From: Rhizophagus irregularis
Taxonomy: Eukaryota
Length of the DNA: 64,000 nucleotides
Reading direction: 5' to 3'
Assembly (NCBI RefSeq): GCF_026210795.1
Contig: NC_089429.1
Location: forward strand, 62,001 to 126,000
The notes below the pieces were generated by a model. That model was not told the DNA's origin. It searched no databases and saw only the letters and a list, made by a program, of their open reading frames with translations. Of the stretch, positions 7,882 to 57,892 are shown piece by piece (the stretch's first letter is position 1; each line of letters opens with the position of its first letter). Made by a program: the position numbers and the translations under genes.

Positions 7882-8214
7882 GAATATTAAAAATTTGACT
7901 TTCCTTTTCCGATAATTATCAGCAAGAGCTTTAATTTGTTAGTACAACAGTTTATATTACTTAATAAAGTATTATGCATAACTTATCGAATAATTATATA
8001 AGTAAATCTTGATCATACATATTTGGTTAGGTAGCATAGTTTTATGCGAAGTTAAAAAAAAAATAACATGCGCAAATAATTTATATTTTTCCAATGCACT
8101 GGTTAAAAAACAAAGCCGATATGGGCAAAAATCCGCCTTCTTGGTTGAAGCCAGAGAAAAATATATCACAATAAGTTAGAATCATTTACTGTTAACTGCT
8201 TTCTGGGCATGAAC

Positions 8215-12171: not shown

Positions 12172-12664
12172 TAGAGCTTTAAAAAAAATTCAGGTCAGGT
12201 ATGAAGATTGACCTGACCTGATTGACCTGTTGACCTGAAACTATTGATTCTACTATATAATAAAAGTGAATTGCAGTATTGGGATTCACTTTTTTATATG
12301 ATTTTAATATAAAAATGTTGAATCGCAATATTTCGAGAAAAAATGTTGCGAAAACGTTTTTTCATAATATTAAAAAAATGTTTCGTAACATTTTTTTTTT
12401 GATATTTCAATAATAACGTTGCGAAAACATTTTTTTCATAATGTTATTAAAAAAAACGTTTTGCAATATTTTTTTTCAATATTTTAATAAAAAACGTTGC
12501 AAAAACGTTTTTTTTCATAATATTATATTAAAAAAAAAGTTTTGTACCATTTTTTTTCAATACTTTAATAAAAATAGTTTTGAAATTTTTCAGGTTTCAG
12601 GTCAGGTCAGGTCAAATAGACAACCTGATATAACCTGACCTGACCTGACCCATTCAGAGCTCTA
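12172..12664. mobile_element. hAT-like non-autonomous element with GACCT/AGGTC subterminal pentamer arrays
   Basis: Ends TAGAGCTTT.. and ..CAGAGCTCTA; multiple CAGGT/ACCTG repeats at both ends; no clean 8-bp TSD. Confidence 0.55.
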
Positions 12665-13086: not shown

Positions 13087-14718
13087 TAAGGATGGGTCCG
13101 CAAATGATTTTCAAATTCTGCAATATTGCGGATTTGGAGTTGAATTGCGGTTAGTAGCTCGCAATTCTGCAATTTTAATTGCTGCCTATAACTGTTAGTT
13201 TCGTACATTTATAAAAATGCCAGAACTATGGGTTCTGGCATTTTCTTTTGATTTTTTTTATATAAAAATGCCGGAACTATAAGTTCCAGTATTTTCTTTT
13301 GATTTTTTTTACATAAAAATGCCAGTACTATAGTTCCGGCATTTTCTTTTGATTTTTTTTACATAAAAATGCCAGAACTATGGTTTCAGCGTTTTCTTTT
13401 GATTTTTTTTACATAAAATGCCAGTACTATGATTCTGGCATTTTCTTTTGATTTTTTTCACATAAAAATGCCGGAACTATAATTCTGGCATTTTCTTTGA
13501 TTTTTTTCGCATAAAAACACGGTCTTATGGTTCCAGCATTTTCTTTTGATTTTTTCGCATAAAAACACTGGTACTATGGTTCTAGCGTTTTCTTTTGATT
13601 TTTTTTACATAAAAATGCCAGAACTATGATTCCGGTGTTTTCTTTTAATTTTTTTTACATAAAAACGCCAGAATTATAGTTCTGGCGTTTTCTTTTGATT
13701 TTTTTTACATAAAAATGCCAGTACTATGGTTCCAGTATTTTCTTTTGATTTTTTTCACATAAAAACGCCGGAACTATAGTTCCGGCGTTTTCTTTTGATT
13801 TTTTTTACATAAAAATGCCAGTACTATAGTTCAGGCATTTTCTTTTGATTTTTTTTTACATAAAAATGCCAAAACTATGATTTCAGCATTTTTTTGATTT
13901 TTTTTATGTAAAAACACTGAGACTATAGGTTCCAGCATTTTTTTAAATTATTTTTTATATAAAAATGCCGGGACAATAGGTTCTGGCATTTTTTTTAAAT
14001 TTTTTTTATATAAAAACGCCGAACTACCATAGTAAATCGACATTTTTATAAATTTTTTATATAAAAACACTGGAACTATAGGTTCTGGCATTTTTTTTAT
14101 TTTTTTTTATTAAAAATGCCAGAACTATTAGTTCTAGCGTTTCAATTTTTATTTTTTTTTATATAAAAATGCCGGAACTATTTAATTTTAGCGTTTTTTT
14201 TTAATTTTTATAAAAACGCCAGAACTATTATTTCCAGCATTTTTTTTTATTTTTTTTTATTAAAATTGCCGGAACTATTAGTTCCGGCATTTTTTTTTGC
14301 AGTTATAATAAGAGAAAATGCCATTTCTGTCAGTTTTTCTAAATTACTGATCCATTTTTTTCTAAAAAAATAAAATCATTTTTTTTAAAATTTTGTTAAT
14401 GAAAAATGATTTTTTTTTGATTAATAATAAGAGGAAATATATTTTTTAGTAGTTAAATTAAAAAATTATATTTCATTAAAAAAAAAATTAGTTTTTTTTG
14501 CGGACATTTCGCAAATCTGCAACTATTCTACAATCCCGCAAATATTCTGCAATTAAATTGCGGTACTTTGGATATTTGCAAATTTGTGGAATATTTGCAG
14601 GATTGCGGATAATTGCGGATTTGCAGATCTGCAGATTTTAGATTTAAAAATCTGCAATGTTCCGCAATACCATAAATCACAATTATTCCGCAATTACATA
14701 TTTGCAGCACCATCCTTA
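13087..14718. mobile_element. hAT-like non-autonomous element carrying an internal minisatellite
   Basis: TIRs TAAGGATGGGTCCGCAAAT and ATTTGCAGCACCATCCTTA; TTGCGG/CCGCAA subterminal motifs at both ends; no matching TSD. Confidence 0.6.
13211..14298. repeat. Minisatellite of ~50-bp palindromic units, about 21 copies
   Basis: Unit ATAAAAATGCCAGAACTATGGTTCTGGCATTTTCTTTTGATTTTTTTTAC; each unit contains the hairpin AAAATGCCAGAAC-tat-GTTCTGGCATTTT. Confidence 0.9.
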
Positions 14719-18502: not shown

Positions 18503-19986
18503 AATTAGTATTATAAAATTATTTTGGCTTTTAGTTATTCAATTTGAACAAACTTTTTTTTGTTTTGTAAAGCTAGATTTGTAGAACTAAATGAGTACTA
18601 TAAAATAAAAAAATTAGACTACTAGAAGTCAAGATAATTGCATTATAATAATTATATAAAAATAATTAAATTACTTATCATATTTATATTTAAATATATA
18701 AATATTACATGATATATATAGATCTGATCTGAAGATTGACTCCCCCCACCTTCTTTCAAATTAATTTCTGGTATGCCCCTAACTTTATTAATAAGTGCAG
18801 TTTTTTTATTATTATTAAGAACAGATGGCTATCCTAAACATTATAAATTTTCAGTTTTCCCAGTCTTTTTAATTTATTAATAAATTTACATATTGTAATA
18901 GGATCATGTCCCATTTTTCTTGTTATTTATACAGGATTAAAATTTTTCATATATGCTAGTATTTTTTCTTTCTCTTGAGAGGATAACCCAATATAATGTG
19001 ATATTATTTTTTAACTGCAAAATGAATTTGGTAAGTTGTAAAATTATGGAAAATAATAAAAAAAATAATAAAATAGGTGTATCATTACACAATATAAAAT
19101 TAGGCAATACTTTCTAACATGACTATACTTATTTTTATTTTTTAATACTATAGAATCTAAAATTAATTTACAACAGAAAAGTTTTCTTGCAGAACTTAAT
19201 CTTTTACATAAAAAAATAAGTAATATAGATAAGTAAAAATATTTTAAGTATAGGTAAAATAGATTATTAGGATGTAAGAAATTATAGATAGCAATATTAT
19301 AATAGAAATAAATTAGTTTATAGAAATTATTTAGAGAGTGAAGAAATAACTTGTTGGAACTCATATTAAGTGACCTAGGATTCATGTACTCCCTCTTTCT
19401 TTGATAATATCATATATATTTATTTTTCTAAAATTTAAAAAAAATCATAAGTTCCTACATTGTAATACTATAACAAAATAAATCATATTGTGTATTGGAT
19501 AATATAAGATATTTCATGATAACTAATTTTTTGTTAACCAATATTAATAATAGGAACTCCATGTTTCAGATGCATTTTCATAAATCAATAAAATTTAAAT
19601 TTGATAAGAATTTATTTGTATTTAAGAGATTTTAGATACATTTACTTGATAAAAATATAAAAGTTAAATTTGAATCATATACTTTTTTCTTCACATTTAC
19701 AAATTTTACTATCACTGGTCAAAAACCAGGCAAACGTGGCATAGTAGCCTTTATCTTTATTAAATTTATTTGGACTTTACAATTTACAAAAAAAAATAAA
19801 AAGAAAATATAAAAATAAAACTAACTAAAAACAAAGCTATATAGTCTCCTAAGAAAAAATAAAGTAAAAAATTAATCTAAAAAAAGAAAAATCGCAATAC
19901 ACTAAATTTCCCCAGATCTTCCCCCTTGATATATTACAACCAAAGTAGAAGCAACTATGCTAACAAAATAACGAATAGCGCGCCCA

Positions 19987-22900
19987 CTATAAAAATCGAC
20001 ACTCCATCCTGCAAAAGCTGTTATTAAGTAGCACCGTTAGACGACCCATAAAACCCGAAAAATGATTAAACCAAGGTAAACCGTATTTCATCGAGTTCTT
20101 CAACCAATCGGTTCCGGAGTCACGTAAATCGTGTAGGGTCGGAGGTGGTAAAGATGAGTAAGGTATATACGATGACAATGGCAAATTAGAAGGCTTCGGA
20201 GTAGTTTTCAACTTATAAGTAATATTCATCGCGTTTTCCCATCTACTTTTCTCATAAGAACGCGGATTCCAAATTCGTTTTCTGAATTTTTGAACAAAAT
20301 TATTATGAATAGCAGCGATAACCTTAATCGCAGAGATTCTTGGAATAGACAAATCGACTAAGATGTCAATAAAAAGTGTAGGTAAACAACCACGGACGAG
20401 GGCGTAAGAGGACCAATTTGTAGAAGAAAAGGACCAGCATGAAAGCAGGTGAGTTTAGCAATAAAGGGAGTAGGATCAATATCAGCCAATTTTCCAGCTT
20501 CTTGAATTTTAGAAATCAAATGGTTTTGATAAGATTGGAGAATTTGTTGCATAGGTAGACGACGTTTTTTGCACATAAAAAGGTGCATCAGGTCTTCCAT
20601 GCGATCGATACAAGAACGGCAAGTTAATTCGTCCATGTATAAGTCTGGTCGAGTCCGCTTAAGCTTTTCCAATGTAGGTAAGTCGTCCAAGAAAAGTTTG
20701 AATTTAAAGGTTAAGTGTCTTGAAGCATGCTCAAGAGTAAAAGATGCATCATGAGAAGGCATGAAATTCAAGGTAAACCAAGTAAGTTCCCAGTCGACAA
20801 TATATTCTATATTAAATAATAATAAAGAAATAAAGTGAAATCGCGTTAAATTTAACAAATCACGCATTAACTGCGTTTGATAATACTGTTTAAGAAGGTG
20901 TCGTGGATTAGATTCACAAACGGCGTCATTGTCGTAAGTCAAGACGAAATCATGGGCAGAAGCAAGGTCCATTCCAGAAATCAAAATACTGGATGATGCG
21001 GTATGGGCAGTATTGGCCAGGGAGTCAGCAAAATCGTTCAAATAATTGCCAGAATGAGCTTTAACTTTAACAGGAAGAACTGTCAAATTCTTGGTAAGGA
21101 TAGTTCGTTCAATAATGGCCCAAAGCTCAAAATTTGTTGTTTTGTAGTAAAGACGGCTATTTGAGTAGACATAGGAAGAGCAACTTCGAAGGCCATCAAT
21201 GGCAGTTTGCGAGTCAGTATAAATAGTAACTTCTGAGTCGCGAGGAGAAATGGTTAAAACTGCGTAAATAGCGGCAGCTTCAGCACGAGAAGAAGAAGGA
21301 TTATCTCGAATGATGCCATGTGCATAAGTGGCAATGGAATTAGGAAAACCAGCATCAGGTACGATTTGTATCCAAGACCAGCCCATAGAAACATTAGGAG
21401 TGCCTAGATTAATAAGAGACCCATCAGTGAAAAAGATATAACGTGAGTCTGAAGACACAACCAACGGCGAATTTGCAAAAACAGCAGCAGCTGAGGATTC
21501 AATAGTGATAAGAGGAGCGGAAACTTCAACAATATCATCAGGAGGAGAGTCAAAATCAAAATCCAATCGACTGTAATAAAGACGGACACCATCTTCGATA
21601 TCAGCCCAGGTAAAAGGAGAGGATACTGCAGAAGTATGACGTCTAATGCGCTCATTGATGGTGGGCAGAATAAGCGAATGTTGTAGAGAAACCGTAGGCG
21701 TACAAAGGGTTAAATCAGCATTCCGTTTTTTGGAAGGAGGCAAAGGAGTATGAGCAGCACAACCAGGGCAAGGAGAGAGTCTAATGAGGTCACCAGGCGA
21801 AGATTCACAATCAGGAGAGACCCAGTGAACAATAGAACAAGTACCACGACTTGCTTGAACTAAAAGTTGTTTGCCAAAGATGGGAGAACCGTAGTCGTCT
21901 AACGTGACAATCCAATTTTTTGTAGTGGTAGGAGAGGACAGGCAAGGAGTCAATTCATAAAATGAAGAGTCAATCGTAGGCGTAGTAATGAACTGGCTCA
22001 GCAAACGATTGTTGGTGTCAGGAATGGTAGTAGCTTGCTGGATATCTTTATACCAATAAGGGATACAGCCAGGGCCACGTCGTCCAACCAAATTGTCATA
22101 GTAGGCTTTCCAAGAAATTAAATGAGTCCCTTGAGGAGTAACAAGCTGAGATAAATAAAATAAATGCCGTTTTCGCAAAATAGGGAAATAGGCTTTAAAC
22201 GCTTTAGGTGTCATGCATTCAAATAAGGGAACGCGTCCATCCATCAAAGTCAGGTTCGGAAGCTTCGAAAGTTGAGTATGAAGCAAACGAAAAGGAGTAG
22301 AGGATAAGAGAGCAATAGTGCATGCGATATAATCTTTCTTAAAAGAAAAAAGAGAAGACCATATAGACCAATCCTTAATTAAAAGGGGAGAAATAGGAAT
22401 TAAAAAATTATATTGAATCAAACTCAATCTATAAATAAAAAGAGATTGAATAAAAGAAAAGGAAGAATTAGCCATTAAAAATAAATTAGTAATATGACAT
22501 TGTCGTTGATGAGCAAATAAATTTATCAAGCCCAAGGCTTGAGATAAAAATAAAATGGGATTTGGTAAAGAGCGAGAAAAATTTGCTTTGTGCTTTACAA
22601 CAGATCGTATACTTCTCGTTATTAGGTGGCAGTCAGATTCAGACAAGTGAGTAACTTGCATCCGGTATTCAAGTTTCGGTATAAGGACAGCATTATGTAA
22701 ATAAACAACTTGTTTGGATGAGAGCTTTGCAGGGCGGATGGTTGCAGCGAAAGAGCAGCATTCACGTTTGAGTTGTTTCTTGACAAAATCCCGGGAGCTT
22801 TTAATGTTAAACCAAACACCTAAAAAACGAAAAGAAGTTGTCATAGAAATTGGGGTAATGGTAATGGAAGGAACACTATTTAATGAGGATAAATCTAAAT

Positions 22901-25613
22901 TAAAAGTAATAGGAGATAAAGTGGAATTCGAAGTCAAAGGCAACGAATTAGTAATTAACACATATTTGTTGTGATTGGCAGAAGTGTTATTAATTTGATA
23001 AAATTCTTCTGTAATGGATAACATAAATTCCATGCCAGTCCTCGACGAGGAAATAAGAGTAGAGTCATCCATAAATACTAAATTATTAATCTTCAAATCG
23101 GAAGAAGGATTGGGAGAATCAATTAAGGATGGTGTAGAAAGAACATAAGGGTCCATCATTTCATGCTTCAAGACAGTAAGTAAGGGATCAATATAAATAA
23201 CCCATAAGAGAGGAGAAATAACTTCGCCTTGGTCAATACCAATGCGAACCCTATAAGCAGGCGTGGATCCATGAGCAGTGAAAACGCTATTAATGCGTTT
23301 TGTGAAAAGGGAAAGAATAAACTTAATAGCAGAAGCTGGAAGACGTATTCGTTCTAAAGCGAAACGTAACATTGTCAAATCAACCGAATCAAAAGCTTTA
23401 GAAATGTCTTGAGAGAGAATCCAAAGTGGGTTTTTGTTGACATCAGCATCATGGATAATAGATTCTAGAGTAATAATAGGGTCGCGGCAAGAACCACCAG
23501 GAAGACCAGCGAAGTTACCACCTTTAAGAACATCATGTGTAGCCATAATAGTAGAAAGGCGATTATAAAAGAGTTTGACAAGAGATTTTCTAATCACTTC
23601 AAGTAAAGTAATAGGACGAGTATTTTTCAATTGACATTTCCATTCGTGAGGTTTGGGAATGGGAAAAACCATTGCCTGTCGCCATAAGTCAGGAATATCA
23701 GCTTTGGAAAGGCATGCTTGAATCAAAATGAGGAGTAAAGCCGAGGTACGAGATCCGAGATGTTTGAGCATTTCATAAGTGATCATGGAAGGACCTGAGG
23801 CTTTACCGTTAGGAGTAGAAGAAACAGTGGTTAACCATTCGTCAAGGGTAGGGGGATTCATCAAAGAATCATAGATGGAGGAGGGCACATCATCCATAGG
23901 TTGGTAAACAGAAGACCATCTATCAGGTAATGTATCTACAGATACAGGAGGAGTGGATTTTATAGGTACAAAGTTTTGGAAATGGTTAACAACAGCATCG
24001 TCTATATCCTTGGGAGCAGTTAATAACTGAGGGTGAGTGGGATGATCAACAAAGACACGATCCAAAGTGATACGGCGGCGGGTGCGAGAAAGCGCTGAAT
24101 CAATGAAAGAGGAAAGGTCAGTTTCAAAATTATTGTTCCTATCGTCCAAATGAGCACGAATGGAGGAGTCTTGGAATTCTTTTTCTTGAAGTAAATGAAA
24201 TCCCCGTAAGGATTTTGAAATATTGGATAAATCATCAAGAAGTGACTTAAAATCATCTTGTCGACATGATGAAAGAGAAGAGGGCAAAGTAAGAACGAAA
24301 GTAAATACTTTCTTATATAATTGCAAAATGTTTTGAAGTCTGATTAAATGAATAGACCACTTATGTTCATGAGCGGCAGAATAAGTTGAAGGATATTTGC
24401 GCAATAAACGTATTGAATGCATAAGGCGATTTAAAAACCGATAATGTTGGGTTAAAATTTCCAGATCTTTAGGAACCTTAGGAGTATAATTATTGCCAAC
24501 AGTGGAAGAAGGTAGTGTAGCGTTGGCAGCTTTAAGAATTCGTGATTGGAGATATTCGCACATTTGATTGATATGCCAAGAGGAAAAGGTTGAAGGTGAG
24601 ACGTCACATAAAGCATCAGCTTTATCAGCAAATTCCGTCCATTGAATTTCAGTTACAGAATCAAATTTGAAGACGCGATGGGTTCGGCGCTTAAGTTGTC
24701 GAGCGCGAGCCAATTTGGTAGAGGCAAAAAGTAAAGACATATCATAGTATGTTATGACGGGGTTATGATCAGATGTGCAAACATCTTGAGCATTAAAAAT
24801 GCAAGCAGTAAGAGCAAATCCTTTGAGAAGAGGGCAGGACCATACATAATCAACTCGAGTAATGTGATCATTGCGATGAAAGGTACCTAAGGAGTCGGAA
24901 AGATTAATAGGAGTATAGTCTTCATATCCGTGAGAGAGGAGATGAAAAAATAATCGGTGAATATGTTTTGAAGCAACTTGAGGTTGATTGAAGTAAATAG
25001 GGTAATATTTGTCTAAATGCATATTGAAATCGCCACAAACAGCATGGTAAAAGCCAGCATGTTTAGTAAGGGTAAGTTGTTGAATGAGCAAATCAATAGT
25101 ATCAGTGCGCAGAACACTTTCAGCAGGGGGAGGGATATAAATAACAAATATACGCAATTTAATATTGCCTTTGAAATATAAATCAACAGAAAGTAACCGT
25201 GAAGAATGCGATTTAAAATCTTGAACATGTGAAGCAAGGGAATTTTCTATAAAAAGAGAAACACCACCAGAAGAGAGAATTTGTTTAGAAGTATCCAAAT
25301 TAGAAGAGAACACAGTATAATTAGAAATACGTTTGGATAAAAACTTCATTTGTTTAGGGTGAAGATGGGTATCCACGATACCACCAAAGGAAATATGTTT
25401 TAAGGAAAAGAAAGTAGAAATTTCTTCTAATTTGGTCTGACCGTGCATTTTGAGGCCATTGACATTAAAAGAGGAAATATTAAATGAATTGGGGATAGGA
25501 GAAGTGTTACTAGGAGAAGAAAATAATGATTCATGTGAAAAAAATTCAGTAACATTATCGGGGTTGGGAGGGTTTCGTACAAAGGTGTCATAATTAAAAT
25601 TATTGTCCGACAT
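19987..25613 (-). CDS. LINE-A ORF2: APE endonuclease - reverse transcriptase - RNase H - C-terminal zinc motif; 1751 aa open, then a frameshift near the 3' end
   Basis: Endonuclease: SFNVNG, GDFN, RVDYVW, SDHNP. RT: QDISKAFDSV, GIDQGEVISPLLW, FMDD, FRFLGV. RNase H: FTDGS, SRAEAAA, YTDSQ, VKAHSG..NDFAD. Zinc motif: CRSC..HLFMC. Confidence 0.93.
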
Positions 25614-25663
25614 TAAAACACAATGATAAAAACAGTCGGGGAGATAAGATTTGAAGAAGAAAA

Positions 25664-27794
25664 TTAAATAGAAGAAGCTGAATCAGCTTGTTCTAGGGGA
25701 GCACCACCAATGGAGCTAATGAATTGTTTGATATGACCAGTAAGTTGGTCCAATTTACTTTCAATAACGACTCTACTATTTTTGAGATCATTAATTTCTT
25801 CTTGCGTGGAGGAGATAGGGGTAAAGGGAGGAGCATTTGGAGAAAGGTGAGAAGAAGGAAGTGATGTGTCAGGAATAGTAGTGAATGTAGGCGAAGGTCG
25901 CGTTAAAATGCTTTTGGGGGGCAGTAAAGATTTAGCGGAAGACTGAATATTAAGCGGAACATGAGTTACAGGGGCATCTTCTTGCATGAGGTCCGGTTCA
26001 GGTTCATTGGGCACAGGAAGTGGATCGAGGCCAAGGTGTGATTCAATACGAGTCATCCGTTGGTCAGCAAGTTCAAGAGCGGAGATGCGTTTGTGAAAGT
26101 TGGCAACTTCACATTGTAAATCTCGCAAAAGGTTTAAAATGTTATTAGCATCATCAGGAGATAATGCAGAGTTAGGAGTTTGTCGGGGTAAGGGACGTGC
26201 TGTAGAACGAGAGGAGGAAGAAAAGGAGACAGATCGTTCTTTACTATTATGGCGGGCACGTTGAGAAGTATTGGGAGGGGGTTTGTTATGATTACTATTA
26301 TCATTATTAGTGCGGTCATGGGAAGCGTTATTGGCTCGTCCAGAATTGGGAGCAGATCGATCTTTAGATTTGGAGCGAGATCGAGAGCGAGAACGTGCAT
26401 TGGCAATATTAGAATTGGAGCGGAGGTTGATTAACATTGAATCGTTCTTTGAGTTTTGCAACAGGGTCGCGAGTGCGGCTTCTACCTCTGGTTTGTTTGA
26501 GTGGGCAAAAATTAGGAGCACAACCTAGTTTGCCACATCTGCGACAAAGTTTATTAGTATTATCGGGGGAGGACCAGAAAAGCACTTTGCCTTGGAAGCT
26601 AACAGTCTGTTCCATAGCAGCATCCATGGTTTCTTGGGAGTTGAAGGTGACATAAGCCCATCTTTTGGGTTTGTAGGAATTTAAAGAAAGAGGAACATTG
26701 ACAGCTTTTGCACCAAGTTCGCGTGTAAGAGGAGCCAAGTTGATATCCTTAACATTGGGAGGAAGTTGAGTGAGGGTGGCAACGTATTGATGGCGCGCAG
26801 CCTTTTGATCCACAGTATAGAAACATGGAGTTATTCGGAGACAGGTGGAGAAACAGTAAACAGCCCATTGGTCAGTAAAACGAGCAATTGAATCGGCGTG
26901 ATCATACACAATACGGGTTTGCTGGACTTTAGCATTAGGCCTGGAGAAGAGGCGACAAGAGGTAATATTACCAAATTTTTTGAAATAGGCCATGAGGTTG
27001 TCTTTTTTAATGAAGAAAGGGATATCGGTAACTTGGATAGCCCGGAGATCTTCATTGGATCGGAGTTGGCGAGGATCATGTGCATGAAAGATTAAGTCAG
27101 GGAACTCAGGATGGGTGGAACCAACGCACAAATCGCGTGCTTCAGCTGTATGGAAGTGGATAACGAGGCGTTTAGCCTCACCAGAACCTGTCATACGAGC
27201 TTTTCCAGTGAATGACTCGTACGTTTCTAAGAAAAGGTTATTCACAGCCTCAATAAGGGCTTTATTGGTAGGGAATTTCTTGAGTGATTCGGGGGCAGCA
27301 TTCGGCGCAGCCGCAGCCTGAAAATCATCTCTGGTTATGGCAAAGGTCACCACTGGATCTGGGGTTTCGATCGCCATCAGGAGCACCATTAGTATCCAAA
27401 TTGGGCGACGCGTTAGGGGGTTGTTGCAAGTCTTTGTTTGAATTGGCTACGCATGCATGGACGCGTCCACATTTCCAGAAGACGCGACGTGACCGGGCGC
27501 AGTTGGCGCAGCAGATTTTTTCGGGGAGGAGGTCAAAGTATTTTCGCCAGAGATATTTTGTTGAGGAGAAGAGGAAAATCCATCTACTCCAACGTCAGCC
27601 GTCTGGTCATCGGCAACGTAGTCTTCTTCCATAGAATTATCGGTAATTGTGCGATTACGTTTCTGCTGGACAGTGTTTTCGCCATCAGAGCTTGAGTTAT
27701 CAGAGTTATTGTTATTTTTTCGTTCTTGACGGGAAGTTTTCCTACTGTTAGGGTTATGACTTCCACGGCCTCTCTTGGCATAGTTACCAGACAT
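25664..27794 (-). pseudogene. LINE-A ORF1 (RRM-like domains, Cys knuckle, RS-rich linker, coiled coil), broken into three ORFs
   Basis: IQVTDIPFF..FKKFGNI and WAYVTFNSQE (RRM-like), CRRCGKLGCAPNFC, RSRSRSRS; ORFs 27447-27794, 26409-27389 and 25664-26521. Confidence 0.85.
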
Positions 27795-28219
27795 AGTAGA
27801 GGGCTTTGAGTTGGGAATATATAAAATATAAAATTTTATTAGTAGCTTGTATTATTTTTTTAAAAATAATAAAAAAAAATATTTTTCGTCGGAAATTTTC
27901 GTTGTTGAAAAATTCAGGAGAGAGTTACTGGTCAAAAACCAATATATCGGGTAGCAGATATGTATCAGATATGTACCCGATATGTGTAGTATTAATGCAG
28001 AAAATCGGGTACCCGATATGTGTAAGATATATGTAAATATATATATCATATACATATCGGGTACCGATATGTATATGATATGTAAATGATATGTAGACGA
28101 TATATATATTTACATATATCTTACACATATCGGGTACCCGATTTTCTGCATTAATACTACACATATCGGGTACATATCTGATACATATCTGCTACCCGAT
28201 ATATTGGTTTTTGACCAGT

Positions 28220-28251
28220 ATAAAGATAAAGGCTACTATGCCACGTTTGCC
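28220..28251 (+). mobile_element. 32-bp extreme 5'-truncated LINE-A copy with its own 15-bp TSD
   Basis: ATAAAGATAAAGGCTACTATGCCACGTTTGCC is the reverse complement of 19729-19760; flanked by TGGTTTTTGACCAGT at 28205-28219 and 28252-28266. Confidence 0.85.
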
Positions 28252-29959
28252 TGGTTTTTGACCAGTGTATTACTAATTCTTTTTAACAAATTTTAATAAA
28301 TTCTTTATAATAATTACAGTTATTTGTAATTTAATAGAATCACATTTTTCCAATATGTCTTATTTTATTTTAACTGCGGCTAACACTTCAAATGAGCTTG
28401 CAAAAGTTACAACACTTTTCTTATCTGCAGTTAAAAAACAGCCAAAATTGATGAAATCCTTTCATATAGAAGTTAAGATTTCTGATGAATGATGATAGTA
28501 TTCTATTACGAGTTTGTCTTAACTCCATATTATAGTATGATGTATATCTTTATAACAAATTCAGAACTGAAGTGATTATAATTATAAAGGAATATATTAC
28601 AACCACACAGAAGATAATCCCACCTGAAGAAGATGAACCATCTATAGTAAATTTAAATTGTGAAGATCTTGAAAAAAATAAGGCATATACTTGATGTAAT
28701 AGGACTAATTATCATGATAAATCTCTTTGTGATAAGTTTAATATTTGTATATTCACATAATTGCCATTTTTATCATGACACTTATCAATCTATTAACCTT
28801 TTTGTAGAATATGATTATATTAAGTATATATGTGCAAATCTGAGATTCTTAAGAAGAAATTTGCAATTTTTATTGCACTATAAAACTTATCCTTCAGAAG
28901 CTCTTTACAAAAGATTATGTTGTGTTATTGTGATGGGAAATTATTAGAGAATTGTTCTTTGCATCTTATTTTAATAAAAAGAAAGACAATCACTGTGATA
29001 ATAAGAAATTGTTATAATGAACTAATTTCTGGTCGGTTTTGTTAAAAGTTAAACTATTGAAATTCCACACCATGGCAGTTAATTTTGGCTGGTGAAAGTT
29101 AGCTCAGTTGCATAATAAATATATGCAGACATGCTATACATATGTCTACTTATTGTTTAATAAAGAAGCTTAGGAGGTGATGAAGGAAAAGGTGACAAAT
29201 AATGAGCTAATCTCAAAACTGAATATCTGAAATTATCCCAGGCTGAACTATTTGCTAGTGGGCTGTATGGAGCTAGAAAAATAGCATTTGCAATTAGAGA
29301 AAAGTCAATATATATCAAGCAGTATTAAGAAACTAATAGATTTTGTCAATGAACTAACAAAAGCAATAAAAACTACCAATGATTCTGTTAATGCATTAAC
29401 AAAGAAAGATTTCAGGAAGGATTCAGTTCTCTTATTAAAGCAATCGATAAACTTGCACGTTCAGAGAATTCTTAATCTGCTGTAAGGCAAATTACGTAAT
29501 ATTAATAAAAAAGTTCAATTCAGAAAATTATATTAAAGCATGAATATTATATTTGTATTTTGTAATGGCAATGTATTCGCAAAATTTATTATTTAGTATA
29601 TTAGCATTTAGTAATGAGATATAGCTTTTTTATATAGTTTCGCTATTATATTAATAATTTCTAGTCATGAATATGAATGAAAGGTCTGTGTGATGGTAAA
29701 TTCCAACATAACACTTTTTTTTTACCTGAGCATAATCACCCTATAAAAGCGTTATGTTACAATCTATTAATAAACTGGCAGTCAAGAGTGCGTCATGCTC
29801 AAAAGTTCTATCATACGCAACTTGAATTATAGTTGTTAAATGTTAAAATGAAATGAAAAGGGATATGATTTTTCGTAGATTCATCTCGGCCCAAAAAGAT
29901 AACTTCGAAAACATTGTCAGAATTTCAGAATACAAGAAATATAGGAGTACATCATCAAA

Positions 29960-30240: not shown

Positions 30241-30243
30241 TTG

Positions 30244-30368
30244 TTATCAGTCATGTTGTAGATGATAACTGATTTACCACTAGGATTGCTATGTATATCA
30301 TATGGCCGAAGGCCACATGATAGAGTAGCATCCTAGTGTAAATCAGTTATCATAAACATGACTGATAA
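30244..30368. mobile_element. 125-bp fold-back (MITE-like) element
   Basis: TTATCAGTCATGTT..GATAACTGATTTAC.ACTAGGAT pairs with ATCCTAGT.GTAAATCAGTTATC..AACATGACTGATAA; central GGCCGAAGGCC. Confidence 0.65.
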
Positions 30369-31022
30369 TAAAGTTATTGGATATGTATGACGTAAAGCAA
30401 CTGAGACCTTTTCGCGTATCTTATTTATTATTTTATAATAATGTGATCAAAATTTTGTATATCACTAATTATAAAGTGACCAAAATTTGTGTATCACTAT
30501 TATAAAGTGATCAATAACATACGTGAAAAATGTCCAGTTACATAGAACATATACAATAAGAAATAGGACACTAGCATAGATTCCATAGAAAATTCGTCAC
30601 GTATCGCAGGCTACGTCACAAACTCTGTATTTATTTTTGCATGTATTAATAAAAAAATTTTCTTGGAAAAAGTGATCTGTGTGACAATTTGTCACGCGCA
30701 CATTATTTTTTTATCTATCGTTCATATGTACTAATTCGAACTTTTGAATTATTCCGTCTCGTATAAAAAATATTATTGAATATGTAATCTGAGATTGATT
30801 CGAAGCTCTTAGAAAGAAGTTACTAAAGTTTAAGGCTGTGAATGCGAAATTGAAACATATAAAGAGAATTTTATTGGTTACAATTTTAGCGTAACTCAAT
30901 CAACCAATTTTGAACTAGCCCAATCTTGAAATGGCCTAGTGTACTGATGGATTAAAATAATAAAATGTGGCTTTGTTTTAAGTAATCTATAGTTCACAAT
31001 CTCTAGCAATTTTCTAACGAAA

Positions 31023-35216: not shown

Positions 35217-35416
35217 CACAGGTCGAAATGCTAAAAATCGGCAAAAAAAATGGCGTGAAAAGCAGTGGTTATTCTTGGCTATTCTTGGCTATTCTTGGCT
35301 GTTTTTGGCTATTTACGAATTAACCTATACTATTTGTAAATAGTTTATACAAATTTGCGAATAGTTTATGCGATTTGCGCCATTTTTTTTGCCTATTTTT
35401 GATCATTTGACGTGTG
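35217..35416. mobile_element. 200-bp CMC/CACTA-like MITE with 3-bp TSD CAC
   Basis: TIRs CACAGGTCGAAATGCTAAAAATCGGCAAAAAAAATGGCG and CGCCATTTTTTTTGCCTATTTTTGATCATTTGACGTGTG; absent from the SINE-B copy. Confidence 0.85.
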
Positions 35417-35597
35417 CACTACAGCCCGCGATTACCTAGCACCGATAGTACAGTTGTTTACCCCAAGTGGTATACTTTGTAGTGACCACTCAGACAGGAA
35501 GTAGCAGGCATCTGTCCAGGATCACCCCTTATGGTGGGTATCAACCACTAGGGATCACCAACTAGGACCCAAGGAGTAGGGAATCGAACCCCATAGC

Positions 35598-35952
35598 CAG
35601 GGTTGGGAAATGTAGTACTGTACTGTACCAGTACAGTTAGTACAGTACATACAGTACAGTACTGTACTGAGTTTTTTTAGTACAAGTACATTTTTTTATA
35701 TAAATTACAGAGGTATTTTTAATCATATATACCCTGTTTTAAGTGGTCCAGTGATTAGATTTCAATAAAATTAAGCTTATTAGATTCATCTCAATGAGAG
35801 GAATTTAATAGTATTTATTTTATCATAAATGAATCAAAATAACTTTATTAAATATATGGTATTTAAAATTTTAAGTACAATGTACTAACTGTACTGTACT
35901 GTACTGTACTGTACTGAAATTTTACCTTGTACACCATATTTTCCCAACCCTG
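35598..35952. mobile_element. hAT-type MITE with 8-bp TSD
   Basis: CAGGGTTGGGAAA..TTTCCCAACCCTG; CCCATAGC at 35590-35597 and 35953-35960; (GTACT)n subterminal repeats. Confidence 0.92.
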
Positions 35953-36440
35953 CCCATAGCCATACTACCTGTTCTGTGCACAAACACCTTGATTGGTCTA
36001 AGACCTAACAGAAAGTCTAACTACCACTAAGACATTGCACCCTCAGCTTTACCATCTAGGACGACCATCTAGCCATTACTGACCCCAAGCGGTATTGTAG
36101 AGTGACCACTTGGACAGGAAGTCCCCCTCAAGGTATAGTAGTGACCTCAAGAACAAGACTGCGCACATGCCAATGGCCTCATAGGGAACATTAGAAGGAC
36201 ACCATGACCCTTAGTTGAAATGTGCGGCCTAACCATACACACTAATTCACCATGATGCAGTCCAACTACACTAATCCCTGTACCTTCACGCTATTGGTTG
36301 TAGCGTCTGCAGTAAAATTCTTTTTATTTCCATGGTCATGGGAATCGAACCTGCGACCTCACCATACTCAGGCTTAATGAGGGTCTCAGTGACTAACCAC
36401 CAAGATAGGGTGACCAACCCTACAGTTTTATCCTTTTCCG

Positions 36441-37780
36441 TACAAACAGTCTTGTGACTTTATCTTTTATTTATATTTTAGTTTCGAAAGAATAGTCGAA
36501 CAATATTACAAAAATAAGAAAATAAACTAATAAAAAATAAAAAGAGTAGCTTCACGACTCATACAAGTAAAGAAATCTAAACTAAAATAAATTAAAGCAA
36601 AGAAAAACTAAACTATTACAGAATCGCATACCCCAACTTTACCCGAAGGCCAGTGTGAGTCAACTATCCAACATCCAAAAATCCAGTCCGTTACCAGAAA
36701 GAAACCCTAAGAGGTTGAACTGTTAAGCGGCGCAGAAAATCCAGGTGCGAGATCCACGATCCACCCCGAATTATAGAAGAGGATATCCAAGAAATCCAGG
36801 AATCCTGAGAAACTGTCGCCAAAGAAGAGTTGTGTTTTTGTGGAGAAGTAACGATAGAAGGAGAAGTTGTAGATGGGCCACGTAATTTGGAAGCAGCCGA
36901 GATACCCTGCGACTCTTCCCAAGCATGGAAAAGAACATTCCGGCATAGCCAAATTTCACCATATAATTCGACTTGGAAATCATTAAGGAGAGGAGAAATA
37001 GTCTTGTATATGACAGAGAGAGGAAAGTGTTGGTTTAAGAATGCTGTTAAATGTGCAGGTAACAATCCTCGAGTAAGCCAAAGACAGGACGGAGAAGGAG
37101 CTTCATAGTTCCAACAATCCAAAGCAGAGAATTCGTGTTGGAAAGAAATGTCCAAAGATTTCAAGGACAAGAAAGAAGATAAACAAGAATCTCTGAATTT
37201 AATAACTTCAGAATGATGTATTAAACATGGATTCAGATCAGGTAAAATATAAGGACAAGTCCAGAGATGGTTCAAGTCTTCAGGAGCTGAGTTGCATTGT
37301 GAACAAAGCCAATCGGGAGAATACAAATAGGGTTTGCGTTGTTGTAGAGTAGTTAAGGTAGGCAACATATCCAAAAGGAGTTTAATACGGAAGATCCAGA
37401 ATTCAGGATGACCATTCTTATGTGAAGCAAAACCTTTAATTTGTGAAAGGCAAAAATGTATACCAGCCCAATCAAAAAGTGAAGGAGAACCAAGAGCAGT
37501 AAAACGTGCCAATGAACAGAAAGATAAAAGAGCACGAGCATCAGCTATGGAGCGAAGAAAGTGACGAACATTCATGTCAACAGGCAAAGAATTAAATGAC
37601 AATAAGCATGGAGCATAGCAAAATTCCAAAAGTAAAACAGCAGGCTGTGAAGATGAATGAGCATCTTTGGCCAGAGAATCCGCTTGAACATTGTATATGT
37701 CATCACCATGAGCAGGGACTTTAATCAAATCGACTTTAAGATTTCGATCCATGATAAGTTGTTGAACAAAAAGCCAAAAC
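36441..37780 (-). mobile_element. 5'-truncated LINE-C (sister of LINE-B): end of RNase H, zinc motif and 3' UTR
   Basis: Uninterrupted frame IKVPAHGDD..N..AD, CSQCNSAPEDLNHLWTC, LRRLTVQPLRVSFW*; flanked by AGTTTTATCCTTTTCCG at 36424-36440 and 37781-37797. Confidence 0.88.
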
Positions 37781-38422
37781 AGTTTTATCCTTTTCCGATC
37801 ACTGGCTGACAAGTTATTCAACAAAATGTTAAACATCGGCATTATAATATTTCTTGATTTACGTTTACTGCACCATTTAACATTTTGCTAGATTTCTCGG
37901 TACCTAGTGATTGTAAAAAGACGATTTATAGCTCGTTGGAATCGCCTCATCGAGACGAATCGAATGGTGGTAAGCTCATCTCTCTGTGATCAATATTGAT
38001 GGAGTTATTACTTAAAAACAATTTAATATTTTTTAATTTCGGAAATTGATCTAGTGATTGGATTTTGATGTATTTTATACCATTAGATTCGTCTCATCAA
38101 GACGAATCGAATGGTAGTAAGATCGTCTTTCTAGGATCAATATTGACAGAGTTATTACACAAAAACCATTAATATTTTTTTAATTTCAGAAATTAATATA
38201 GTGATTGGATTTCGACGTATTTTATACCATTAGAACCGTCTCATCAAGACGAATCGAATGGCGGTAAGATCATCTCTCCACGATTAATATTGGCAAAGTT
38301 ACAATACAATAAAGTTTTAAGTATAATTCTGGCTAAAATTATGTTAATTTTTGGCCGGAATTATGATATACAAATATAAGAAATTTTTTATATAGTCACA
38401 TCTCTTTATAATCACCAAATAT

Positions 38423-39426
38423 ATGGGTTGGTCACCCTATCTCAGTGGTTAGTCACTGAGACCCTCATTAAGCCTGAGTATGGTGAGGTCGCAGGTTCGA
38501 TTCCCATGACCACGGAAATAAAAAAGAATTTTACTGCGGATGCTACAACCAATAGCGTGAAGGTACAGGGATTAGTGTAGTTGGACTGCATCATGGTGAA
38601 TTAGTGTGTACAGTTAGGCTGCACATTTCAACTAAGGGTCATGGTGTCCTTCTAACGTTCCCTATGAGGCCATTGGTATGTGCGCAGTCCTGTCTTTGGC
38701 GTCACTACTATACCTTGGGGGGACTTCCTGTCCAGGTGGTCACTCTACGATACCACTTGGGGTCAGTAATGGCTAGATGGTCGTCCTAGATGGTAAAGCT
38801 GAGGGTGCAATGTCTTAGTGGTAGTTTGACCTTCTGTTAGGTTTTAGACCAACCAAGGTGTTCGTGCACAGACAGATAGCTTGGTGATTGGGTTCGATTC
38901 CCTTCTCTGATGGGCCCTGGTTGGTGATTCCTGGTGGTTGATACCCACCATAAGGGATGATCCTGGGTAACACCTACAAGCTTACTGTTCAGGTGGTCAC
39001 TACAAAGTATACCACTTGGGGATTACAACTGTACTATCGGTGGTGGGTAATCGCAGGCTGTAGTGGCCTTTGAGTGAGACTTGTTACCTAATATGGTGGT
39101 ATGGAAGGGGTCTAGATGTTTGAAGGTTATCTGACGAAAGTCCTCCGTGACAGTAGTAGTGGTGAGGGGTTTATAATAGTAGCCATTACAGTATCATGCA
39201 ACGGATTAAAGGACGAGTAGGGTGGTGTTCTTCCGATTCAAAGGCCTTCGGGTCCCTGGGGTATGCCTGAATGTTGGACGGGCTGGATAAGTTGTCTTGG
39301 TTAAAAAGGTGGCCTTGATGACATCTGGTGGTTCAATGATGGCGAGGATACGAACGACCTACCTCCATAACCTTCAATAGAGGGTGCGGAAAGTAGTGGC
39401 CACTAAACGTACAATACACTTGTAAA
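38423..39426 (+). mobile_element. SINE-like element, variant B (~1.0 kb, two Pol III A/B-box modules, no long ORF)
   Basis: TCTCAGTGGTTAG (~38440) with GGTTCGATTCC (~38494); TCTTAGTGGTAG (~38813) with GGTTCGATTCC (38891); bounded by ATAATCACCAAATAT. Confidence 0.8.
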
Positions 39427-39441
39427 ATAATCACCAAATAT

Positions 39442-39542
39442 TCATGGCTTAGTGAGGATGATGCAATGAACGACCTACCTCCATAACCTTCAATAGAGGG
39501 TGCGGAAAGTAGTGGCCACTAAACGTACAATACACTTGTAAA
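39442..39542 (+). mobile_element. 101-bp array unit made of the SINE-B 3' tail
   Basis: GAACGACCTACCTCCATAACC..TACACTTGTAAA is identical to 39352-39426; flanked by the 15-mer on both sides. Confidence 0.8.
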
Positions 39543-39696
39543 ATAATCACCAAATATGAGGATCATCGCAACTCTTTCCTGAATTTTTGAAAATACTAAT
39601 AAAATTTTATTTTGAAATTTTCGTTCGAAAATTTCTAAGTGCTCGTTCAAATACTAATATTCCACAGTTGCTTTCCTCTTTACTGAGCTTTAAACT

Positions 39697-55563: not shown

Positions 55564-57675
55564 ATAATCACCAAATATGAGGATTATCGCAACTCTTTCC
55601 TGAAAACTTGAAAATACTAATAAAATTTATTTTTGAAATTTTCGTTCAAAATTTTTAAGTGCTCGTTCAAAATACTAATATTTCCCCAGTTGCTTTCCTC
55701 TTTACTGAGCTTTATACTATGACTACACCTACAGCTCCTTCTGTTATTAACCCAGATATTCCGCCGCCATCACGTCCTGATACTTCAGCTCCTTCAGGAG
55801 ACCGACCTTTGTCTCCTACTAATACCGCTGGCACGCCTAATAAACATTCGCGTATTGTTACTGATGATGCTATGAATGTTGATATAACTTCGTCCTCTTC
55901 TCCTGCTCCCTCCCTTATTTCTACCGTTCCTTCTGGTCTTCCTGTCAACAAAGTCCAAGTGATTACCTCTCCTCATAATACTACTACTCCTGTTGAAACT
56001 GTTGACGCTTCTATCCATGCTCCCTCTAACACCTGATGGTAAAGGCAAAGCTGTTGCCTTCGATATTCCGGAACGACAACCATCCTCCGATGGTAATGCT
56101 ACTGCTATCAAATCTGCACCCTCTCGTTATCATGCTGCGGCCTACCTACGTGACGTGCCTGACACATTCAAAGCTAAATTCACCACCAATTGCTCTATGT
56201 GTGACGAAGTGGATTGTTCACTCTCCCATTATTCTTTTTATGGCGCTTGTGCACGATGCGAAGGATCAAGCGATAACAAGAAAATCCTTGTTTTCTTCAA
56301 TAATCATGATGATTATACCGATTGTGTCACCTCCCCATGTGCCGATTTCCTTGATTTGGCTTTCAGTCATTACTTCCCTGCAGACGCTAAGCTCAGTGAT
56401 GAAATGAAGTCTTTGTTTGTCACTGATATTCCACTTTTCCTAACCAAGACTCAAATCCGTTAGGCATTTTCCCGATATGGCACTGTAATCAAGTGCAAAC
56501 TTACTCCTAGGAAATATTACTATAATGATTGTTGGTCCGATTGCTACTTTGGGAAGTATTGGGACGAGAAGTATTAGTATTATTGTTGCTGTTGTTGGAA
56601 CGGGATGAAGAGAAATTATTATTGCAGGATCTAGAATTGGATCACGATTTTGAACGGGAATTGGAATTGTCACGTGATCAGCGCGAGTTTTGATGACCAC
56701 ATCTAGGGCCAGCATTGAAGCGAGAATAAAGTTTGTTAAGGCGATCATCTACTTTCTGTGTGGTACGAGGATTGCATACAGAGGGAGAACAACCAGGGCA
56801 CCCATAAACGTGGCATAAAGTTTGTGCTTTATTGGGAGGATGCCATGTTAATCCTTTACCACAGAAAGCTACGATCATTTCTTTGGCAGCTTCAAGAGAT
56901 TCAAACGATGAGAAATTCAAATATACATAGGGTTTAGGCTTGTAGGAGCTGATAGATAGAGGAACGTTAAAGGCCTTAGCGTTAACTTGAGTAGCAATTT
57001 CTAACAGATTAGCTTCTTTAATATTCTTTGGAATGCTGGTAAGGATAGCAACATGTTCTCTGCGGCTATCGCGTTGAGATTTTGAAAAAGATGCCGGGCA
57101 AACACGTAAACAATTACCAAGGCAAATGATCGCCCAAATATCATTAAATTGGGCAACTGCATCTGCAGAGGAAAATTGGATATGTCAATAATAATAATCC
57201 TTGGAACAATGATAATTCTTCCGGTTCTACTCAACCTCCACACAATCCTCATCCTACCAATTCTACACCACCTACTTCTCCATCTGATAATTCTGCCCAT
57301 ACACTTCCTCAACATATTATTGATGACTTAAAAGTGCAGATCAAAGAGATCGCTAACACCTTTCATACTCTAAAGGAAACTGTCTCTTGGATGAATGATA
57401 CTATCACGGCCCATGAGTATAGGCTATCTGAGCTTGAATCAATGATGAATTATGACAACCCTGGTGACTCTGATTTATATCCGCCTCGTGATGGTTATGA
57501 AAATCATACTCATTCTTATGATAATGGATGGGATGATGCCCCAACCCAAGACACGAATTCAGGATTCAATCTTCCTTCCCATACTTCTCCTTCTCTTATG
57601 GATACTTCTCCTGATGCTTCCTTTTCAGCTCTAGATCCTAACTCCGTCTTGTCAAGAAGACATGTCCCCTTACCT

Positions 57676-57720
57676 CACACGTCAAATGATCAAAAATAGG
57701 CAAAAAAAATGGCGCAAATT
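57676..57720. mobile_element. Single TIR of the CACAC.. MITE family seen at 35217-35416
   Basis: CACACGTCAAATGATCAAAAATAGGCAAAAAAAATGGCGCAAAT is the reverse complement of 35373-35416. Confidence 0.8.
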
Positions 57721-57723
57721 ATA

Positions 57724-57892
57724 CATGCTGCTCAAATTATTTTGGGATGCCATAATTATAATTTGGGATGCTATAATTCATTCGGTTTATATATAATTTA
57801 CTATGTAAAGTGCCAAAATAATTTGGGATGCCATAATTGAATTTGGGATTTTACTTATAATTACGGCAGTCCAAAATAATTTGGGTGGCATG
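57724..57892. mobile_element. Tc1/mariner-like MITE flanked by TA
   Basis: TA|CATGCTGCTCAAATTATTTTGG..CCAAAATAATTTGGGTGGCATG|TA. Confidence 0.75.

Follow-up and report, generated by a model that had tools for sequence, protein, structure and literature searches.

Likely Targeting of DNA Transposon Tips by a LINE at a Doubly Occupied MITE of Rhizophagus irregularis

Introduction

How does a single miniature inverted-repeat transposable element (MITE) come to carry sequence of the same long interspersed nuclear element (LINE) at the identical base of both of its ends? The question is raised by a 64,000-nucleotide stretch of Rhizophagus irregularis DNA (assembly GCF_026210795.1, contig NC_089429.1, positions 62,001 to 126,000 of the forward strand), which we call the window and in whose own coordinates positions are given. 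Here a retrotransposon, LINE-A, and a short copy of its 3′ end lie on either side of the core of a CACTA-type MITE. At several loci LINE-A occupies sites 16 bases inside CAC..GTG transposon ends, flanked by a 15-bp duplication. We consider it likely that its endonuclease complex aims there, and that this MITE was hit twice, once by a full-length and once by a 32-base copy.

Results and Discussion

The composite is made up of the following features.

19710-19712, unstranded: left target-site duplication (TSD) TAT of the DNA transposon, as read from the sequence
19713-19728, plus strand: regenerated left tip CACTGGTCAAAAACCA, made of the terminal C at 19713 and the 15-mer at 19714-19728
19729-27926, minus strand: LINE-A, 8,198 bp, 3′ end outward, junction without poly(A); its ends are homologous to those of LINE-B (below)
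27927-28219, unstranded: MITE core, a 293-bp near-perfect palindrome whose outer 15-mers (27927-27941 and 28205-28219) are the inner duplication copies
28220-28251, plus strand: stub of 32 bp, matching the 3′-terminal 32 nt of LINE-A at every base and pointing outward
28252-28267, plus strand: regenerated right tip TGGTTTTTGACCAGTG, made of the 15-mer at 28252-28266 and the G at 28267
28268-28270, unstranded: right TSD TAT of the DNA transposon

The outer 48 bp of the composite form a 100% inverted repeat. The 15-mer TGGTTTTTGACCAGT occurs in the window in four exact copies, all within the composite, compared with 0.00018 expected from base composition. If LINE-A, the stub and a single copy of each 15-bp duplication are subtracted, what remains between the TAT triplets is a near-perfect palindrome of 295 bp whose ends are CACTG..CAGTG. 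The initial annotation had proposed that both terminal inverted repeats (TIRs) of one MITE carry LINE-A at the identical base, each with the same 15-bp duplication one base inside the end, pointing outward and with the outer TAT kept, and that the outer 16 bp of both TIRs are regenerated. The window sequence and the coordinates above bear out each of these statements. Its description of a full-length 8.2-kb LINE-A holds as to extent, whereas both open reading frames (ORFs) are frame-shifted relative to homologues.

The host MITE, 295 bp long including the terminal C and G, has CAC..GTG termini, a 3-bp TSD and subterminal GATATGT repeats. EnSpm elements are defined by CAC..GTG ends and a 3-bp TSD (PMC12730594; this and the other articles cited here are represented by excerpts), and these two features, together with the subterminal repeats, liken the MITE to the non-autonomous EnSpm/CACTA (CMCT) elements treated in that article. 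The GATATGT repeats sit in the MITE core, and now lie 8.2 kb from the left tip because LINE-A intervenes. None of 12 long gene models scanned provided an EnSpm transposase partner for the MITE. It is possible in principle that the composite moves as a DNA transposon, with the LINE hitch-hiking; no second LINE-plus-MITE composite with another 3-bp TSD was met in the public contigs and gene models considered below, which do not amount to a genome-wide search. A related transposon end, CACTGGTTAAAAAACA, lies at 8097-8112, with two mismatches to the target and no adjoining LINE, and no partner end for it was found within the window.

We compared contigs from four of 22 listed public runs, representing four studies, with positions 28136-28300. 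Contig counts refer to those listed, beside which 53 further loose-end rows exist. Upstream of the outer 48-mer, the consensus is LINE 3′ untranslated region (UTR) in all four runs (3, 13, 9 and 7 listed contigs; agreement 0.74-0.95), confirming that the 32-bp piece is a LINE-A 3′ end, as the initial annotation had it. Beyond the terminal G the flanks are diverse (6, 7 and 5 listed contigs), with agreement values of 0.53, 0.50 and 0.52; simulation of unrelated flanks gives 0.52, 0.51 and 0.54, on the assumption, made in all our simulations, of how the contig-comparison program computes agreement. Empty MITEs are also present, in which the MITE end is followed by G and varied flanks (2, 11 and 4 listed contigs). 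Finally, the MITE end is joined to the LINE 5′ end in five of the contigs listed for run X6, and to LINE-5′-like sequence (14/21 by eye) in four listed for run X1.

These data bear on whether the 48-bp inverted repeat belongs instead, as its TIR, to a separate CACTA-type element into which both LINE and MITE were captured, an outcome that the initial annotation had named as fatal to its proposal. A perfect 48-bp inverted repeat with CACTG..CAGTG ends and a TAT duplication does resemble a normal EnSpm element. However, among the contigs listed, the sequence inside the 48-mer is LINE 3′ UTR in all four runs, and empty MITE ends exist. In addition, the 32 bp are homologous to the 3′ end of LINE-B, and the LINE end has another flank in some contigs and another spacer in R. 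clarus. We regard capture by an independent element as highly improbable.

A second line of evidence comes from gene models that read through the LINE 3′ end, of which there are seven at four loci among 405 proteins. All three R. irregularis loci (P0134/P0325; P0001/P0312/P0313; and P0151, from isolate A5) continue with W-F-L-T-S, the translation of the 15-mer. The possibility, also raised in the initial annotation, that LINE-A copies elsewhere lack this flank is thus not borne out. In P0001, W-F-L-T-S is followed directly by mid-reverse-transcriptase sequence of another LINE copy, a joint such as would be expected of a 5′-truncated copy landing in a rebuilt target. The fourth locus, P0404 of R. 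clarus (residues ~1815-1845), has a LINE 3′ end that is almost the same, followed by five spacer residues unlike W-F-L-T-S and then by the truncated endonuclease of the next copy. The spacer would fit a 15-bp duplication of another target; its possible codons are compatible with a CACT end, which cannot be read from protein. Protein searches centred on the junction matched only P0151 and P0001.

The window also holds a sister family, LINE-B, in four head-to-tail copies (39543-64000) that are 81-91% alike. Each copy is preceded by the 15-mer ATAATCACCAAATAT and then by 12 further constant bases, GAGGAT(C/T)ATCGC, and the LINE-B duplication is 15 or 27 bp, the last 3′ junction lying beyond the window. 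LINE-B and LINE-A have 44% identity over the aligned ORF2 stretch and have both end motifs in common; the TAAAGATAAAG..GTTTGC motif at the LINE-B 3′ end is homologous to the LINE-A 3′ end. A third family, LINE-C, is entered in the following list beside the coding features of LINE-A.

25664-27794, minus strand: LINE-A ORF1, encoding an RRM and a CCHC knuckle, interrupted in the window copy by frameshifts
19930-25613, minus strand: LINE-A ORF2, with APE endonuclease, reverse transcriptase (RT), RNase H and CCHC; C-terminal end approximate, frameshift near 20440 relative to P0002
25613-24654, minus strand: endonuclease (EN) domain of ORF2
36443-37778, minus strand: LINE-C, 5′-truncated, 89% to P0109, with a 19-bp duplication CGGAAAAGGATAAAACTGT within 36421-37799

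Pfam matches are RVT_1, RNase_H (E 7.9e-11) and Exo_endo_phos_2 in LINE-A ORF2 and RRM in ORF1. LINE-A has the features of an APE-type non-LTR element: an APE domain and a non-LTR RT in ORF2, an RNA-binding ORF1, a target-site duplication, a fixed 3′ end and variable 5′ truncation. Compared with homologues, ORF1 of the window copy is out of frame around 27445-27390 and has another shift near 26450; the LINE-A frameshifts may be real lesions or assembly errors. ORF2 is 100% identical to R. irregularis protein P0002 over 1,720 residues, and the 90% cluster of P0002 has 113 members. The last 72 nt of LINE-A RNA fold no better than shuffled sequences (z -0.62), and the window has no tRNA or Rfam matches.

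The catalytic motifs of the endonuclease look intact, with N, Y, D-x-N, D and D-H conserved across 70 sequences. The EN model (pLDDT 82) has human L1-EN as its top Foldseek match (E 4.8e-14). The fold assigns no clade because, in VIA-align, L1-EN ties with ExoIII enzymes (Z 22-23.5, rmsd ~3, ~220 residues aligned); the endonucleases of TRAS1, R1Bm and Tx1L are not among the structural matches listed. The predicted specificity hairpin of LINE-A has seven residues between its anchors, compared with 11 in Tx1L and nine in L1, and equals that of R1Bm (PMC1950540, excerpts). In a model, a hairpin of this length would neither prove nor exclude specificity.

A quick tree of 67 rows, picked by RT coverage and containing no named reference clades, places LINE-A and LINE-B/C in separate, well-supported groups within a wider lineage, which includes Entrophospora elements and metagenomic APE-RT-RNase H elements. 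Among the PDB matches, L1 and R2 tie at ~62 bits.

The contigs also contain a second flank. At the junction, seven listed contigs (four from X4, three from X6) switch into TTGATAAGGACTGATG, compared with 18 listed that reach the terminal G. The second flank consists of 16 nt ending in TGATG, and its end lies at the same 16-nt distance as in the CACTG target; the PlavakaB terminus is of the TGATG type (PMC12730594, excerpts). As a side observation, TTGATAAGGACTGATG loosely resembles a palindrome at 30241-30371. The second flank opens the possibility that targeting is specific to position rather than to sequence, with the ORF2 protein (ORF2p) tethered to transposon ends, for example by a bound CMCT transposase or at the cruciform tip of a palindromic MITE, and cutting at a fixed distance from the terminus. 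The two flanks share the 16-nt register while only 8/16 positions are identical by eye, and the LINE-B junction likewise has 16 nt ending in TG. With agreement values of 0.77 and 0.68, the second flank matches or comes near to what 15 fixed letters followed by diverse sequence would give (simulated 0.80 and 0.79; all-diverse 0.60 and 0.57), although the value of 0.68, from X4, falls below the simulated range. On the other side, the second flank is known only as a 30-letter consensus of the seven listed contigs, and its source may be a sister subfamily whose endonuclease differs. Moreover, the 15-mer is re-used in tandem arrays that have no true terminus (P0001, LINE-B), which points to recognition of sequence, and at 38408 and 39427 the base after the LINE-B 15-mer is not G. 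We consider tethered cutting at a fixed distance from the terminus, the chief alternative as regards mechanism, distinctly unlikely.

Returning to sequence-directed targeting of the TIR tip by LINE-A, several observations besides the second flank weigh against it or restrict its scope. On a rough reading of depth, which is not copy number, the share of LINE-A-type ends that enter the CACTG target is only about one quarter to two thirds, and the presence of the target in the compared stretch favours target-bearing copies. Predicted splices may be present in the gene models, which establish no fewer than 13 nt of the target but fall short of proving direct tandem junctions. The LINE-C duplication is 19 bp long, and the sequence where it lies does not evidently belong to a transposon tip. 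At the position of a metal-binding Glu, 61/70 EN sequences have Asp, so that activity is not assured; LINE-B EN also has Asp there, where APE enzymes usually have Glu. Nevertheless, each of three proxies for the share of LINE-A ends with the same flank exceeds the 20% above which PMC4494074 regards a family as target-specific: the three of three R. irregularis loci, the 18 versus seven listed contigs, and the depth share given above. These observations suggest that TIR-tip targeting by LINE-A is likely. The sequence-specific targeting proposed in the initial annotation therefore stands in that the same flank recurs at other loci and the MITE exists without the LINE, and falls short in that a second flank occurs: because of it, the LINE-A family is target-preferring and not strictly single-site.

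The right end of the composite needs separate treatment, as targeting could be real and the stub still have arisen otherwise: by deletion from a longer copy, by template switching or conversion from the left end, or through an error of assembly. Identity between the stub and the end of the left copy is 100%, the stub junction is not among the listed contigs of the four runs (a further point against double insertion), and the window LINE-A copy has several indels relative to homologues, possibly assembly errors. The identity is uninformative, however, since LINE-A copies are often nearly identical, as the 113-member cluster illustrates. The four runs contain only 59-66% of the words of the stretch and none showed the right flank; zero depth there proves nothing, so the stub is neither confirmed nor contradicted. 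Finally, at the stub the inner 15-mer is retained up to the very base found at the full-length 5′ junction. A second nick at a fixed position predicts this; one would not expect conversion to stop at that point. On balance we hold a secondary origin of the stub to be unlikely, if still worth keeping in view, and double insertion into the window MITE, presumably in two independent events, to be probable, the latter resting on one assembly.

A mechanism that could produce this arrangement is target-primed reverse transcription. ORF2p would nick the strand 5′-CACTGGTCAAAAACCA-3′ just after CACTGGTCAAAAACCA, and the freed 3′ end would prime cDNA synthesis on the LINE RNA. Targeting could be sharpened if the transcript extended into the downstream duplication and base-paired with as many as 15 nt of the primer, which is plausible because the junction has no poly(A). 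A second nick would fall one base inside the terminus, at a distance of 15 bp from the first; the resulting 15-bp duplication would restore the outer 16 bp of the TIR and with them a usable target. Stubs would then come from early termination, and head-to-tail arrays from repeated use of the restored target. In a palindromic MITE there would be two identical, opposite targets, so that both insertions point outward and the 48-bp inverted repeat arises as a by-product. More speculatively, Glomeromycete LINEs of the LINE-A lineage might be specialised parasites of CMCT tips, perhaps tethered to the transposase-bound end, that use the 16-nt register at CA..TG termini of several superfamilies (EnSpm-like CACTG, PlavakaB CATCA and perhaps others) and restore the tip through the 15-bp duplication, with composites then moving as DNA transposons and taking the LINE along; we give this extension only a small chance.

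That LINEs can target DNA transposons is already known from animal Tx1 families. Examples are Tx1L in Tx1D, Tx1-Mar in Mariner and Tx1-9_AMi in Harbingers (PMC4494074). Tx1L of Xenopus laevis is, like LINE-A, an APE-type non-LTR element that occupies one specific site of a non-autonomous DNA transposon, its specificity being attributed to the endonuclease (PMC4494074, PMC1950540). It belongs to the animal Tx1 clade, however, and Tx1D is a piggyBac-type target, whereas LINE-A is fungal, encodes RNase H, inserts 16 nt from the tip and has its target terminus rebuilt. The crocodilian cases, Tx1-Mar/SINEU in Mariner-N4_AMi and Tx1-9_AMi in Harbinger, resemble LINE-A in that they prefer, though not always strictly, non-autonomous DNA transposons of high abundance, and sister families there switch targets (PMC4494074). 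They differ in host kingdom and transposon superfamily, and their sites are internal (~240 in Mariner-N4_AMi; ~300 bp from the Harbinger 5′ end), unlike the TIR tip used by LINE-A.

According to the excerpts of PMC4640811, target-specific APE elements fall mostly in the Tx1 and R1 clades, and the non-LTR clades listed there as bearing RNase H exclude Tx1. LINE-A lacks the RNase H-less ORF2 typical of Tx1, which is a typical and not a strict feature; it works like a Tx1-type transposon parasite and we do not file it as Tx1. Its APE-RT-RNase H layout is that of Proto1 and the other RNase H-bearing clades (PMC4640811), and deep relatives with this layout occur in metagenomes and Entrophospora. 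Beyond RNase H, Proto1 elements have an APE-RT architecture. No target specificity of Proto1-like RNase H-bearing clades is reported in the excerpts of the literature examined. For R. irregularis itself, L1-Tx1, Proto1, CMC and Plavaka are among the transposable element families listed (PMC11075540, supplement). The available parts of that article make no mention of a LINE target preference, and two motifs searched for are absent from its supplement tables (9,058 characters available); the element library of its authors may already contain the LINE-A family. Excerpts of PMC13465315 and PMC5753468 added nothing on LINE targeting of transposon ends, and a fungal LINE aiming at TIRs or TIR tips was not found in the literature, with subscription journals and Repbase Reports outside coverage.

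Other searches and features are as follows. A metagenome scan with a pattern for both junction types gave two loci of the same sequence, L001 and L002, which were rejected: they have 23 bases in common with the MITE end, flanks that are not CAC..GTG, and no LINE. L001 (1373-1586), and likewise L002, has two outward MITE-like ends around a long AT-rich palindrome. The 25 matches to the 16-mer in a viral scan have unrelated continuations and were taken as chance, as were two prokaryote matches; a search for related loci in viral contigs found nothing.

Within the LINE-B region, ATAATCACCAAATAT occurs without a LINE start at 38408 and 39427, and the copy at 39427 ends a perfect 90-bp direct duplication (39352-39441 = 39468-39557). 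LINE-B copy 3 (56507-57198 and 57676-57896) has a ~690-bp internal inversion and a large deletion, and at its break is a 44-bp piece identical to 35373-35416 (CACACG.. end). LINE-C lies within a fold-back at 35417-39065, which also contains a ~147-bp tandem repeat (37905-38312); its inverted arms are 35417-36420 and 38425-39065, its outer ends are CACTACAG..CTGTAGTG, and it has no matching 3-bp TSD. Homologues are without a translation of the duplicated 19-mer, so the idea that LINE-C aims at its own coding sequence was discarded. Elsewhere, ~20 tandem copies of a 50-bp unit occupy 13192-14318, and small palindromes lie at 12327-12581, 14391-14484, 30241-30371 and 30409-30529.

Conclusions

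If LINE-A does target transposon tips as proposed, a lineage of fungal LINEs that bear RNase H, with a separate 15-bp site for each sister family, would represent a further origin, or an extension, of the target-specific strategy. The endonucleases of such families, related to one another but directed at different targets that can be read from the sequence, would make a natural panel for studying how APE specificity changes and for site-directed gene insertion. Composites of the kind described here are liable to be mis-annotated as CACTA elements with long TIRs. For the LINE, insertion at the tip combined with rebuilding of the tip would make a safe, self-renewing niche, and it predicts the formation of LINE arrays in the repeat-rich genomes of these fungi.

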